From Escherichia coli (GTDB lineage: Bacteria; Pseudomonadota; Gammaproteobacteria; Enterobacterales; Enterobacteriaceae), in assembly GCF_003334815.1 (NCBI RefSeq), contig NZ_QOWO01000076.1: a stretch of DNA of 4,596 nucleotides. One strand, 5' to 3'. A model generated the notes under the pieces. That model ran no database searches, was not told where the DNA came from, and saw nothing but the letters and a program-made list of their open reading frames with translations. The translations under genes were made by a program, and so were the position numbers. This document shows, one piece after another, positions 1-4,596 of the stretch. Positions within the stretch are counted from its first letter, which is position 1, and every line of letters begins with the position of its first letter.

Positions 1-1114
1 GGAAAAAGACGGGATGCCGGATGCTGACGGTGAATACGCATGGCTTCGCCACGGGTGATGATTTTCATAGTGGGATATCTGGGCGAGGATACCGCCGAAC
101 AGCTGGAGTTGATGCGTAGCGCCTTCCGGGTTATCCGGACGGTACGGGAAAAACATGCCTGTACTCAGTGCGATGCCATCGTGCAGGCACCTGCACCTTC
201 GCGGCCCATCGAGCGGGGTATCGCCGGACCGGGGCTGCTGGCCCGCGTGCTGACCTCGAAGTATGCAGAGCACACCCCGCTGTATTGCCAGTCAGAAATA
301 TACGGCCGGCAAGGTGTGGAGCTGAGCCGTTCACCGCTGTCGGGCTGGGTGGATGCATGCTGCCGGCTGCTGTCTCCGCTGGAAGAGGCGCTTCATGGCT
401 ATGTCATGACTGACGGCAAACTCCATGCCGATGATACCCCGGTCCAGGTACTGCTGCCGGGTAATAAGAAGACGAAGACCGGGCGGTTGTGGGCGTATGT
501 TCGTGATGACCGCAATGCCGGGTCAGCGTTGGCACCTGCAGTGTGGTTCGCTTACAGCCCGGACAGAAAAGGCATCCATCCGCAGACTCATCTTGCTTGC
601 TTCAGCGGTGTGCTGCAAGCGGATGCGTACGCCGGGTTCAACGAGCTGTATCGCAATGGTGGGATAACGGAAGCTGCCTGCTGGGCTCATGCCCGCCGAA
701 AGATCCACGATGTGCACGTCCGCATCCCGTCAGCACTGACGGAAGAAGCCCTAGAGCAGATCGGTCAGTTGTACGCCATAGAGGCGGATATAAGGGGAAT
801 GCCGGCAGAGCAGCGGCTTGCTGAACGTCAGCGAAAAACGAAACCGCTGTTGAAATCCCTGGAAAGCTGGTTGCGTGAAAAGATGAAGACCCTGTTCTTC
901 GGCTCTGGCCATGGTGGTGAGCGGGGAGCGCTACTGTACAGCCTGATCGGGACGTGCAAACTGAATGACGTGGATCCAGAAAGCTACCTTCGCCATGTGC
1001 CTGGCGTCATAGCAGACTGGCCGGTCAACCGGGTCAGCGAACTGCTTCCGTGGCGCATAGCACTGCCAGCTGAATAACACATCCCCGTCAATACGGCCCT
1101 CGCTGTACGCTTAC
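1..1114 (+). mobile_element. 3' portion of an IS66-family insertion sequence (tnpC region plus right terminal repeat); the window begins inside the element
   Basis: The 40..1077 ORF has IS66 TnpC hallmarks. About 37 bp after its stop the sequence ends in ...GCTGTACGCTTAC (1101..1114), the reverse complement of the 5'-GTAAGCG terminus typical of IS66-family inverted repeats. GC content is high (~58-60%), unlike the rest of the window. Boundary at 1114 is approximate. Confidence 0.75.
40..1077 (+). CDS. IS66-family transposase TnpC, N-terminally truncated and probably defective (candidate pseudogene)
   Basis: The translation carries the IS66 zinc-finger-like block (HACTQCDAIVQAPAPSRPIERGIAGPGLLARVLTSKYAEHTPLYCQSEIY), the first aspartate region (KLHADDTPVQVLLPGNKKTKTGRLWAYV), the CWAHARRK (CwAH) motif and the conserved C-terminus (GGERGALLYSLIGTCKLNDVDPESYL...LLPWRIALPAE). 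An in-frame TGA at 31..33 lies just upstream of the first ATG, and 345 aa is about two-thirds of a typical ~510-540-aa TnpC. Nucleotide similarity to canonical TnpC, as I remember it, only begins around position 75. Confidence 0.88.
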   Translation: MASPRVMIFIVGYLGEDTAEQLELMRSAFRVIRTVREKHACTQCDAIVQAPAPSRPIERGIAGPGLLARVLTSKYAEHTPLYCQSEIYGRQGVELSRSPLSGWVDACCRLLSPLEEALHGYVMTDGKLHADDTPVQVLLPGNKKTKTGRLWAYVRDDRNAGSALAPAVWFAYSPDRKGIHPQTHLACFSGVLQADAYAGFNELYRNGGITEAACWAHARRKIHDVHVRIPSALTEEALEQIGQLYAIEADIRGMPAEQRLAERQRKTKPLLKSLESWLREKMKTLFFGSGHGGERGALLYSLIGTCKLNDVDPESYLRHVPGVIADWPVNRVSELLPWRIALPAE

Positions 1115-1230
1115 TTTTGTTCGGACTGCTTATGGCCTTTTTCCACTGGTGTAGCAGGAAAGTTAACCGGCTGCCACCATGAGATGACGTGTAAACCGTG
1201 CAGGCATGTTTTCACGTGGTGACGCTTTCA

Positions 1231-1255
1231 TTGGGGGTCTACGCCGGAACCCCAA
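1231..1255. terminator. Stem-loop TTGGGGgTC-tacgccg-GAaCCCCAA between the IS66 end and the 3' end of the phytase-like gene; possible weak terminator
   Basis: Inverted repeat read directly from the sequence: an ~8-bp stem with one mismatch and a 7-nt loop. On the plus strand it is followed by a partly T-rich run (TATTGTT); on the minus strand, which is the sense of the adjacent gene, there is no U-tract. Function is uncertain. Confidence 0.2.
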
Positions 1256-1315
1256 TATTGTTCACATACATGAATTTGAAAAACTAAGCGATACTGCTGT
1301 CCGTACCTTATAAAC

Positions 1316-2689
1316 TTATTTCAACGCTTCCGGCAGCGTCACAATCCACAGTTCACTGTCAGACTCCGGTTTCTCCAGTGGCTTCACTCTGAGGGTCGTT
1401 TCAACCTGCTTGTCGTCAAGCGTCAGCTTTCCTTCCGCGTTCACCCGATAATCCTTGAATGTCTTGCCCTCGACCGGATGTTGCATCGCCACCTTCACGC
1501 CAAAGTCGTTATCGTTCGCCACCGCCAGCGTTTTGCTGTCGATCAGCGCCAACCCTTCAGCCTTCTCCTGCTGCCAGCCCAAGGAGCGCAGATCAACAAC
1601 CTGCGTTTTCTGCGCAAGGGTAATGCCGCGCTGTGACAGGGTTTTCTCATCATCAAACTCCGGATACTCACCCGGCTTGTCGAAGCCTGACAGGTCGCTC
1701 GCCTTATTGAGATCGACCTCGTAAATCAGGTTACGCATTCTGTTGTTTTTATCTCTTCCCTGTTCGATCAGCAGGATGTGCTGGTTATCGAGCGCCACGA
1801 TGTCTCCGATTTTAGCGTCGCTGTTTTTGCTGTAGGCCGCGCTGTCGATAGGATAACCGTACATCGCGGTTTTTCCGCTTGCCGGATCGAAGCTCACCAG
1901 ACGCGTAAACAGCGCCTTTTTCTTGCTCTTAGCGTCGATATCCAGCGTACTTTGCACGGCGACAATAATACGCCCGTCCGGCATACGGGTGAGGCCTTCA
2001 AAGCCGCGGTTCGCCTGACGCCATTTGAGGATATTTGGCAAACCGCCCGCAATCGCTTTTTCCCCTTCCGCCGCCTGCGGACCGTGGATTGCCAGGATTT
2101 TCCCTTTACTGTCGATGTTAATCAGGAACGGGCCATACTCATCGCACAGCCAGTAACCTCCTTTACCATCCGGAGTGATCCCTTCCGTATCCAGCCCGCG
2201 ATTATCCCCCTTCAGTCTATGTAACGTGTCGCTGAAGGCCACTTCATTGGTGGAGCCAATCACGTCGCTTGCCAGCGGCAGACCGTTGATCGCGCCTTTA
2301 TCGTCATGCAGAGGACGGGGATCGATGGCCTCCGCTTTGCCGTTTTGTACACGAATCGTCATCAGCAGCGGCGCGAAATCTGGCGTAACGAAAATTTTAG
2401 TTTCGTTTTTCCCCTCTTTCGGTGAATCCGCGTTCGGACCGCGATCGGTAATGGTTGCGAATGTCAGGGCATCGCCCTGTTTACCGGTGAACAGCAGGCC
2501 AGAACCTATCCCAACCGGAAGGCCGTTCGGGAATGCACTGGCAAATGCGCCGGCGTAGTTCACGTGCGTGCCTTCTGGAAAACTGACGACATAGCGCTCA
2601 GCCGTAGGTTGTGCCGCCAGGGCAGAGAAAGAGAGCGTACAACCGATTAGCACGGGAATAATTTTTCTTTTCATATTGTTAGCATCCAT
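1316..2689 (-). CDS. Secreted/periplasmic phytase-like family protein (esterase-like activity of phytase type, putative beta-propeller hydrolase)
   Basis: A 457-aa uninterrupted ORF. The N-terminus has a Sec-type signal peptide (MKRKIIPVLIGCTLSFSALA|AQP) that also contains a possible lipobox (LIG-C). The mature part is Gly/Asp-rich with repeated D-x-EG-type motifs (GLDTEGITPDG, GFEGLTRMPDG) as I recall for phytase-like domains. The true start may be the second ATG at 2674 (MKRK...); neither ATG has a strong Shine-Dalgarno sequence. The CDS call is firm; the functional family is from motif recognition only. Confidence 0.8.
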   Translation of the reverse strand: MDANNMKRKIIPVLIGCTLSFSALAAQPTAERYVVSFPEGTHVNYAGAFASAFPNGLPVGIGSGLLFTGKQGDALTFATITDRGPNADSPKEGKNETKIFVTPDFAPLLMTIRVQNGKAEAIDPRPLHDDKGAINGLPLASDVIGSTNEVAFSDTLHRLKGDNRGLDTEGITPDGKGGYWLCDEYGPFLINIDSKGKILAIHGPQAAEGEKAIAGGLPNILKWRQANRGFEGLTRMPDGRIIVAVQSTLDIDAKSKKKALFTRLVSFDPASGKTAMYGYPIDSAAYSKNSDAKIGDIVALDNQHILLIEQGRDKNNRMRNLIYEVDLNKASDLSGFDKPGEYPEFDDEKTLSQRGITLAQKTQVVDLRSLGWQQEKAEGLALIDSKTLAVANDNDFGVKVAMQHPVEGKTFKDYRVNAEGKLTLDDKQVETTLRVKPLEKPESDSELWIVTLPEALK

Positions 2690-3718: not shown

Positions 3719-3984
3719 GCCTAATTATGACAGGTGTAACAAGCATATTTTGCTATATAAATAAAATACATAATACTGATTATTGTAAGAACAGGAAGCA
3801 GACTAATGGTTTTTTTTGTGAGCACATTCCTTCTTATGTAGGAAGAGGCTGTATTATATTCAGTCAACTCTTTTTTACTAAAAACATTATCTATGCCATC
3901 AAAGTTGCCTGCTAGCTAATTTTTAGGATATCGCCTTGTCGTGGATTATGCACTCTAAACATGTAGAAGGTATTCATTACAAAT

Positions 3985-4357
3985 ACACAGACGGCCATCT
4001 TTTGTAAAATGGATGCCGTTTTAAGTGAGATTCTGATTTTCAAATTGTTCCGGACTGAGACCGCCACACCAACTGTACCATCGCCAGCGATTGTAATCGC
4101 ACTCGATATAATTAAGTAAGTTTGCTGATTTTGCTGTTTACTGCGACAGATGTAAAGCTGTGGTGATTCATGCAGACTAAGTTCACGGACTCCGGCAGTA
4201 ACACCGATGCATTCTGCAAGCTTCAGATCTTAACTACGAAATTCATGCGAATGGTGTTTACGTTTTTTTACTGGTTGAAACTGTTTTGTCTTGTGAGTCA
4301 CCTCTGACTGAGAGTTTACTCACTTAGCCGCGTGTCCACTATTGCTGGGTAAGATCA
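3985..4357 (-). mobile_element. Internally deleted, decayed IS3-like remnant: left IR, the first ~50 codons of a dead orfA fused to the last ~30 codons of orfB, then a diverged right end
   Basis: The reverse complement of 4261..4357 reads TGATCTTACCCAGCAATAGTGGACACGCGGCTAAGTGAGTAAACTCTCAGTCAGAGGTGACTCACAAGACAAAACAGTTTCAACC, i.e. the IS3 IRL and orfA 5' end as I recall them, but with the start codon changed (ATG to AAG) and a 1-nt deletion. Homology to orfA (...RSKQQNQQ) stops near 4118 and jumps to the orfB C-terminus ([29 protein letters not shown], stop at 4021..4023). Sequence 3985..4020 resembles the IS3 IRR only weakly (~21 of 39), so the lower boundary is uncertain. Confidence 0.7.
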
Positions 4358-4427
4358 CAACACTTTAAAATGCCCTATATAGGGTTAACCAGTAATTATC
4401 TGTATGATAGCTTTGAGTTCGGGAGGA

Positions 4428-4596
4428 GGTAATGACTCCAACTTACTGATAGTGTTTTATGTTCAGATAATGCCCGATGACCTTGTCATGCAACTCCACC
4501 GATTTTGAGAACGACAGTAACTTCCGTCCCAGCCTTGCCAGATGTTGTCTCAGATTCAGATTATGTCGCTCAATGCGCTGAGTGTAACGCTTGCTG
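4428..4596 (-). mobile_element. IS1-family element, right end (terminal IR 4428..4450) continuing beyond the window
   Basis: GGTAATGACTCCAACTTACTGATAGTGTTTTATGTTCAGATAATGCCCGATGAC... matches the IS1 terminus (GGTAATGACTCCAACTTA...) and the adjacent insB 3' end. It differs from canonical IS1 at about 10% of positions, so it is an IS1 variant or isoform. Confidence 0.9.
4443..4596 (-). CDS. insB: IS1 transposase InsB, C-terminal portion (5' end outside the window)
   Basis: The minus-strand translation ends ...[49 protein letters not shown] with the TAA as the reverse complement of 4443..4445. This matches the known InsB C-terminus apart from one substitution (S to L). Confidence 0.85.

Follow-up and report, generated by a model that had tools for sequence, protein, structure and literature searches.

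The question raised by this 4,596 bp segment of E. coli DNA (hereafter the window) is how the broken ends of several IS families, two intact accessory genes and abrupt changes in base composition came to lie side by side, and on what kind of replicon. We propose, with a probability of about 0.87, that the window is the IS 'scrapyard' arm of a chromosomal tRNA-associated island of the P4/CP4 type, lying immediately upstream of IS1-ykiE-fecIRABCDE and of the same kind as KpLE2 (at leuX) and the SRL-PAI. This chromosomal, fec-adjacent setting is assigned to the window from related complete E. coli genomes.

Layout and composition of the window

The window holds six remnants of IS elements, which fall into four families (IS66, IS3, IS5 and IS1), and two intact accessory genes, one phytase-like and one AriR-like, among the broken IS pieces:

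1–75 (-): 5' end of a yeeT/DUF987 gene, 68 nt coding and 7 nt upstream, fused to mid-tnpC
76–1077 (+): IS66-family transposase gene tnpC, 3' two-thirds, with about 128 N-terminal codons missing
1078–1113 (+): IS66-family right end, with terminal inverted repeat (reverse complement GTAAGCGTACAGC)
1117–1194 (+): what is left of a DUF6404 family gene after truncation by the IS66-family element
1316–2674 (-): intact phytase-like gene (Pfam PF13449, E=7e-43)
2956–3129 (+): IS629/IS1203-like 3' end (IS3 family), last 43 transposase codons and right terminal repeat
3127–3164 (-): IS3 left terminal repeat stub, 38 bp, a direct repeat of 4320–4357
3165–3343 (+): IS903-like 3' end (IS5 family), ending in its terminal repeat (reverse complement GGCTTTGTTGAA)
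3344–3991: AT-rich cargo segment (32% GC) between the IS903-like end and the IS3-like right end
3425–3718 (-): intact AriR-like gene, encoding a 97-aa predicted distant YmgB/AriR-family protein
3992–4357 (-): internally deleted IS3-like element of about 366 bp, its left boundary approximate because the right repeat has decayed in its outer 12 bases
4358–4427: 70 bp remnant between the IS3-like tip and IS1
4428–4596 (-): IS1 end, terminal repeat GGTAATGACTCC and last 50 InsB codons

The IS66 part (76–1113) is 59.1% GC, within the 58–60% given in the original prediction, and the phytase-like coding sequence (1316–2674) is 54.2%, such that the predicted value of about 50% is slightly low although the downward step from IS66 is real. 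Composition falls to 32.0% GC in the AT-rich segment (3343–3991), with 200 bp windows as low as 29%, close to the ~30% proposed for 3400–3980, and the rise expected in the IS3 and IS1 ends is seen but is modest, to 43.1% in the mini-IS3-like element and 45.6% in the IS1 end. Segments of at least 150 bp are strongly heterogeneous in GC content (chi-square 146, df 8, p=1.3e-27), and the range across 200 bp windows (0.365) exceeds that of all 1000 shuffles (mean 0.15, maximum 0.25), bearing out the description of a sharp compositional mosaic. We attribute the GC steps to the butting together of DNA of separate origins by transposition and IS-adjacent deletion. Rfam searches identify no RNA families in the window (E<=0.1), and sites resembling promoters or terminators occur in it no more often than in shuffled sequence.

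Three of the remnants belong to the IS3 family: the IS629/IS1203-like end, the IS3 left-end stub and the internally deleted IS3-like element, with the IS629/IS1203-like and IS3-like pieces assigned by matches to named element ends. Over 177 bp, the IS629/IS1203-like end shares 95.5% identity with an annotated IS1203 at its right end; it also has a weak C-terminal match to NF033516. The 38 bp stub has 89% identity to the IS3 left end and 92.9% to the second copy (4320–4357), and an 18 bp deletion allele of it is found in genomes L007 and L002. In the mini-IS3 element, the left end and decayed 5' part of orfA (4120–4357) are joined to the 3' end of orfB (4004–4119), and ~895 bp of IS3 are missing; its left and right ends are 88.8% and 83.9% identical to those of IS3, the orfA part has an in-frame stop, and the element has a C-terminal match to NF033516. 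All of the fragments in the predicted list of four IS families are present, although IS629 and IS3 are one family and the list thus holds three. A fourth family, IS5, does exist in the window as the IS903-like end (~3165–3343), which was missed in the original prediction, as were the 38 bp stub at 3127–3164 and the yeeT fragment at 1–75. The IS903-like end is 76% identical to IS903B over 153–163 bp, a distant match that makes the subgroup name approximate; membership of the IS5 family is indicated by 12 bases of the IS903 terminal repeat at 3332–3343, and PGAP annotates an IS5/IS1182 fragment here. The IS1 end is assigned to its family by 98–99% identity to IS1 copies from 4428 and a match to NF033558 (E=1e-6).

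The IS66-family element is recognized by its tnpC homologue (profile NF033517, IS66 family transposase, E=4e-95) and terminal inverted repeats, with the 13 bp terminal repeat matching the left end of a complete copy in genome L001. A functional, simply inserted IS66 copy has complete tnpA-tnpB-tnpC genes and an 8 bp target duplication; in the window tnpA, tnpB and 128 tnpC codons are absent, and no 8 bp target duplication flanks the complete copy in L001. The window tnpC is collinear with the annotated tnpC of strain 7/2 (99.9%), and a full-length 461-aa TnpC copy is still ~51 aa short relative to ISCro1 TnpC. The adjacent DUF6404 remnant carries this annotation in strains D2 and DA33135, and is 85–92% identical to plasmid DUF6404 genes.

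At the extreme left end, the open reading frame at 40–1077 is a chimera that starts inside the antisense yeeT segment. The yeeT fragment is of the type found in CP4-44-type island modules, and matches DUF987/yeeT genes annotated in 3023 genomes at 100%, with up to six places in each. The yeeT-tnpC junction (75/76) is absent from all 5426 complete E. coli genomes, and has no exact match in metagenome contigs or species-representative genomes. The window looks like a short-read contig ending in repeats on both sides, and the absence of the junction elsewhere together with the multi-copy sequence at both ends (yeeT paralogues and IS1) would fit a reading in which the left 75 bases are an assembly artefact and the true locus is the common form with a complete IS66. 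However, the closed genome of strain D2 has an independent yeeT-tnpC junction at the equivalent of window position 90, 14 bp away in tnpC and with yeeT in the same orientation as in the window, and deletion of this type therefore does occur; we regard an artefact as unlikely.

Distribution, stability and later change

The inner mosaic (1100–4440), scars included, is present in 1447 of the 5426 complete E. coli genomes, and positions 76–4596 are present in 1435. Substitutions in the interior do not exceed ~0.5% across five compared genomes, the genomes compared including NCTC86 and isolates from humans, dogs, cattle and water. When two strains are aligned, no 500 bp stretch from ~750 bp to the left of IS66 through fecE diverges by more than 0.8%, and further to the left divergence rises to 5–50%; judged from these alignments, the mosaic and fec appear to move as a block of at least 14 kb. 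The same junctions and near-identity across genomes indicate that the scars are old and have been inherited as a block. The original prediction set repeated rearrangement against an arrangement identical and syntenic in many unrelated strains, and for the interior the latter is largely what is found, with the unrelatedness of the carriers resting on strain histories, hosts and diverged flanks.

A stricter reading is that the locus is an old, fixed and vertically inherited arrangement that no longer rearranges. The junctions shared by so many genomes and the low substitution level would fit, as would the left neighbours (Gp2, two zinc-ribbon genes and IS66), which are the same in six genomes, but presence is patchy (27–40% of genomes) and the block lies in different places: in the leuX island, beside setC/yicL in D2, with other genes in DA33135, and in the separately named SRL PAI of S. 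flexneri. The sharp divergence step ~750 bp left of IS66 and the window's private left junction (75/76) also argue against fixation, as do the structural variants. In L005 and L011, and in 414 genomes, there is a deletion between the two 38 bp IS3 left ends with loss of 3165–4357, and IS1-mediated variants and plasmid copies are also found. The BL21-type variant has an IS1A truncation, NCTC86 is without IS1, and D2 and DA33135 have further forms of the locus. We consider complete fixation very improbable, and with several IS insertions and deletions and these variant forms, the prediction of a repeatedly rearranged accessory locus is supported in part. What still changes is limited to the edges of the locus and to a small number of recurrent deletion routes.

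The mosaic would be made up of an IS66-family element rich in GC, a phytase-like gene of enterobacterial type (54% GC), three IS ends stacked on one another, a 32%-GC AriR-like fragment, an internally deleted IS3-like element and IS1. We infer the order of insertions purely from their nesting, in which the IS629-like element would have inserted into the IS3-like left end, and the IS3-like element would have truncated the IS903-like element. The comparisons show that the mosaic was assembled once and then spread with fec as a near-invariant block. From knowledge of the families we also infer that the IS remnants are immobile, having lost transposase genes or ends, with a 51-aa hole in TnpC in the full IS66, and such immobility would explain the stability of the interior. 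Three routes of later change are shown by the variants: recombination between the two 38 bp IS3 left ends, which removes 3165–4357; IS1-mediated deletion or capture, as in the BL21-type truncation and the IS1-flanked plasmid copies; and illegitimate deletion on the IS66 side, of which the yeeT-tnpC fusion in the window would be a private example.

The island setting beside fec

The locus has the attributes of a tRNA-associated genomic island, with a tRNA and an integrase gene (seen in strain 00_3230), distinctive composition and mobility genes, and variable presence. In 00_3230 the same block is preceded, 12 kb upstream, by the tRNA-Leu and a tyrosine recombinase (integrase). The fec genes adjoin the block in six genomes, and related genomes continue with IS1-ykiE-fecIRABCDE after the IS1 end of the window. 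ARAGORN identifies no tRNA inside the compared loci, the tRNA-Leu of L007 being cut by the locus end; no tRNA is seen beside setC in strain D2, and a selC site is not claimed.

A closely similar arrangement is seen in Shigella flexneri 2a YSH6000, in its SRL pathogenicity island, reportedly described by Luck et al. in 2001. There the order is fec (orf26–33), the phytase-like gene (orf34) and IS66 tnpC/tnpB/tnpA (orf35–37), with Gp2/Hha/CP4-type genes including yeeU/yeeV homologues beyond IS66 (PMC6980539). For fec, the phytase-like gene and IS66 the gene order is the same as in the block that holds the window, and orf34 is 99.78% identical to the phytase-like family protein, although that island has a complete IS66 where the window retains only part of tnpC, joined to yeeT. 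KpLE2, which carries fec in E. coli K-12 and B (PMC3032704), is likewise a P4-type integrase island at a tRNA-Leu gene (leuX) with fec and an adjacent IS1. A BL21-sized laboratory strain has the AriR-like gene, mini-IS3, IS1 and fec in the same order; in contrast, the matches of K-12 derivatives to the window are limited to IS copies, and these derivatives are without the phytase-like gene, the AriR-like segment and the scars. An IS patchwork beside fec on this well-known E. coli/Shigella island is real, ordinary and already described.

The predicted location on a plasmid or a genomic island can probably be narrowed to the island, for which the tRNA-Leu, integrase and fec genes speak. About 60 plasmids of E. 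coli, E. albertii and E. fergusonii carry positions 138–3344 with an IS1 copy on each side, the two in direct orientation (~99% identity), and pQL57EC-1 carries 2951–4357 and IS1-ykiE-fecI', with three extra genes between 4357 and 4378. That the window is itself plasmid DNA, where IS-bounded patchworks are typical, is nonetheless very improbable. The phytase-like gene occupies 2306 places in E. coli, of which 2240 are chromosomal and just 66 lie on plasmids, and in PLSDB it occurs on no more than 69 of 72,556 plasmids. In the plasmid forms IS1 interrupts the sequence at 138 and 3344, or the phytase gene is missing. The window, with one IS1 end, keeps the unbroken chromosomal order 76–4596 at 99.9%, and the yeeT sequence with which it starts matches 4982 chromosomal places and one plasmid place.

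The cargo genes and their association with fec

The phytase-like gene is present in 2193 of the 5426 genomes at 99% identity or more and corresponds to SRL PAI orf34 (PMC6980539); its product has no relative among solved structures and no match to an NCBIfam model. The AT-rich segment is found in 1677 of the 5426 genomes. Its 97-aa product is predicted to be a distant member of the YmgB/AriR family, from matches to Pfam PF10798 (E=7e-6) and to PDB 2oxl (YmgB; E=0.0015 over residues 40–96), and the PGAP name agrees.

The two genes are on the same strand, but are separated by a ~750 bp spacer with three IS remnants, differ in GC3 (63% in the phytase-like gene vs 38% in the AriR-like gene), and are each found without the other (2193 vs 1677 genomes, with the whole core in 1447). 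As originally proposed, they do not form an operon; they are independent cargo. A small open reading frame upstream of the AriR-like gene (3721–3867) was considered as a partner and rejected, its frame being broken by a 1 bp insertion in strain 00_3230; it also has no PGAP call.

It is conceivable, although we give the idea little credence, that the phytase-like periplasmic protein is kept beside fec by a joint function, such as freeing iron or citrate-accessible iron from phytate-type chelates. If true, such a partnership would account for the joint spread of fec and the scarred arm, which might otherwise have disappeared, as a single near-invariant block of at least 14 kb.

The locus has little import beyond annotation, but it shows clearly how sequences of different origin become stacked through IS insertions and deletions next to them, and it illustrates that IS scars can be old and conserved and do not necessarily imply current instability. 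Links of the fec iron-uptake module with bovine mastitis and with virulence have been described (PMC7750360, PMC8187952), and because the locus flanks this module its structural forms could be markers for movement of the module between islands and plasmids.

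Segments, IS remnants and base composition

The IS mosaic is real, ordinary and already known, and its components in window coordinates are as follows.

1-75, minus strand: start of a yeeT/DUF987 gene
76-1077: 3' two-thirds of an IS66-family tnpC (NF033517, E=4e-95); GC of the IS66 part (76-1113) 59.1%
1113: end of the IS66-family element terminal repeat
1117-1194: DUF6404 gene remnant
1316-2674, minus strand: intact phytase-like protein gene (PF13449 'esterase-like activity of phytase', E=7e-43); GC 54.2%
2675-2955: segment with GC 40.9%
2956-3129: 3' end of an IS629/IS1203-like element, 95.5% identity to IS1203
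3127-3164: 38-bp stub of an IS3 left terminal repeat, adjoining the IS629-like and IS903-like ends
~3165-3343: 3' end of an IS903-like element with its terminal repeat, 76% to IS903B
3344-3991: AT-rich segment with the AriR-like gene; GC 32.0% (3343-3991), with 200-bp windows as low as 29%
3425-3718: intact gene for a 97-aa distant YmgB/AriR homologue (PF10798, E=7e-6; PDB 2oxl, E=0.0015)
~3992-4357: internally deleted IS3-like element, 84-89% identity to IS3; GC 43.1%
between 4357 and 4428: 70-bp remnant between the IS3-like element and IS1
4428-4596 (window end): IS1 end; GC 45.6%

The window holds six IS remnants of four families (IS66, IS3, IS5 and IS1). All four elements named in the original prediction (IS66, IS629-like, IS3-like and IS1) are present. 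They represent three families, as IS629 and IS3 share one, and the prediction missed the IS5-family piece. The IS3-like element has lost ~895 internal bases, a stop lies within its orfA, and its right repeat has a degenerate tip. Nesting of the remnants suggests that an IS3-like element cut the IS903-like element and was then cut by the IS629-like element, with deletions subsequently taking most of each; we infer this order, and the remnants would no longer be mobile.

GC content, profiled in 200-bp sliding windows and counted per segment, is heterogeneous between segments (chi-square 146, p=1.3e-27), and its 200-bp range is 0.365 compared with a maximum of 0.25 in 1000 shuffles. The predicted fall from the IS66 part to the AT-rich segment, and the rise towards the right end, are recovered in both analyses, and the predicted figures agree to a few percentage points. 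The gene for the phytase-like protein does form an intermediate step, but at 54% rather than ~50%. These steps mark joints of DNA with differing origins, produced by transposition and IS-adjacent deletion.

The phytase-like and AriR-like genes do not form an operon, since IS remnants lie between them, their GC3 values differ (63% and 38% respectively), and each is found without the other. The sole plasmid relatives of the phytase-like gene outside Escherichia and Salmonella (hits H261 and H262) are on Pantoea megaplasmids (76-78% nt identity), and these may hint at its origin. A 48-aa hydrophobic ORF on the minus strand (3721-3867) has its stop 2 bp ahead of the AriR-like start codon; it is probably not a gene, being unannotated and, in strain 00_3230, broken by a 1-bp insertion at 3809.

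The IS66 end and the left junction

The yeeT|tnpC junction at 75/76 is present in 0/5426 complete E. coli genomes, and exact-match scans of metagenome contigs and species-representative genomes gave no match. It is nonetheless unlikely that the left 75 bases are an assembly artefact: D2 has a junction of this type that is independent of the window's, at window position 90, and shows that such deletions do occur. The 345-aa ORF at 40-1077 is a chimera of 12 antisense yeeT codons followed in frame by the truncated tnpC.

In the locus of strain 7/2, the common form of TnpC (L001:14617-16002, the counterpart of window 76-1077) is 461 aa long and ~51 aa short relative to ISCro1 TnpC, with the gap between ...REKMKTL and FFGSGHGG..., and no 8-bp target duplication flanks the complete IS66-family copy. 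Because of these two features we infer that the complete copy is probably inactive, which would fit the stable interior of the mosaic.

Chromosomal setting and spread of the block

Positions 76-4596 match 1435 complete E. coli genomes, in a single place in each, and the best matches listed are chromosomal and 99.9% identical. Six annotated genomes share the order inovirus-Gp2 gene, two zinc-ribbon genes, complete IS66-family element and phytase-like gene; in five of these the IS remnants (some deleted, and in one genome without IS1) and then ykiE/fecIRABCDE follow, and the sixth, DA33135, has other genes after the IS629-like end. Strain 00_3230 has a tRNA-Leu gene and an integrase 12 kb upstream. 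The locus is the leuX island KpLE2, known to harbour fec in both K-12 and B (PMC3032704), and the same order of fec, phytase-like orf34, IS66 orf35-37 and CP4-type genes is listed for the Shigella flexneri SRL pathogenicity island (PMC6980539); the locus has therefore already been described. The tRNA-Leu/integrase and fec setting and the IS remnants bear out the prediction that this is an accessory island locus which has undergone rearrangement, and the plasmid location offered as an option is not supported, the phytase-like gene occupying 2240 chromosomal and 66 plasmid places.

Among 5426 complete E. coli genomes, the phytase-like gene is present in 2193 and the AT-rich AriR-like segment in 1677. 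The window span differs by 4 substitutions from strain 7/2, by 7 from NCTC86, and by 10 and an 18-bp deletion from 00_3230. Strains 7/2 and 00_3230 (L001 and L007), compared over window-relative positions -1925 to +12300, are nearly alike over at least 14 kb: between a point ~750 bp to the left of IS66 and the end of fecE, no 500-bp stretch diverges by more than 0.8%. Further left, divergence jumps to 5-9% and the sequences then become unalignable (range to the left of the step, 5-50%). Because low divergence over this distance ends in a sharp step, the mosaic and fec travel as one block inside diverged island backbones, and the scarred arm with fec behaves as a recently spread block. The 18-bp deletion allele (3130-3147, in the IS3 left-end stub) is common to the 00_3230 chromosome and plasmid pB27_2, which ties the copies on plasmids to a single chromosomal lineage.

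Deletion forms and present change

The two 38-bp IS3 left ends (3127-3164 and 4320-4357) are direct repeats, 92.9% alike, and their recombination deletes 3165-4357, as in WP5-W18-ESBL-11 and Seattle 1946. The resulting 1.19-kb deletion form, which is without the IS903 stub, the AriR-like gene and the mini-IS3, occurs in 414/5426 genomes (146-bp junction probe). A BL21-sized strain has sgcR-IS1A joined at 3358. NCTC86 (L012:10042-10290) is without IS1 and ykiE and has different DNA past the IS3-like tip, with fecI within ~250 bp; this is a further deletion form at the IS3-like-tip joint. The phytase block is apart from fec in DA33135 and D2, and in ~60 Escherichia plasmids 138-3344 lies between two IS1 copies. 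Plasmid pQL57EC-1 carries 2951-4357, three extra genes, and then IS1-ykiE-fecI'. Because these genes (L006:9372-11900; ester cyclase, GlxA-family regulator and MBL-fold hydrolase) lie between 4357, the mini-IS3 tip, and 4378, the chromosomal form looks like a deletion derivative.

Identity and synteny across many strains, which would speak against the original prediction, are largely found for the interior (1100-4440 in 1447/5426 genomes; substitutions at most 0.5% over the window span among six genomes). Most of the rearrangements are old ones that the carriers share, and present change is confined to the edges and a few deletion routes.
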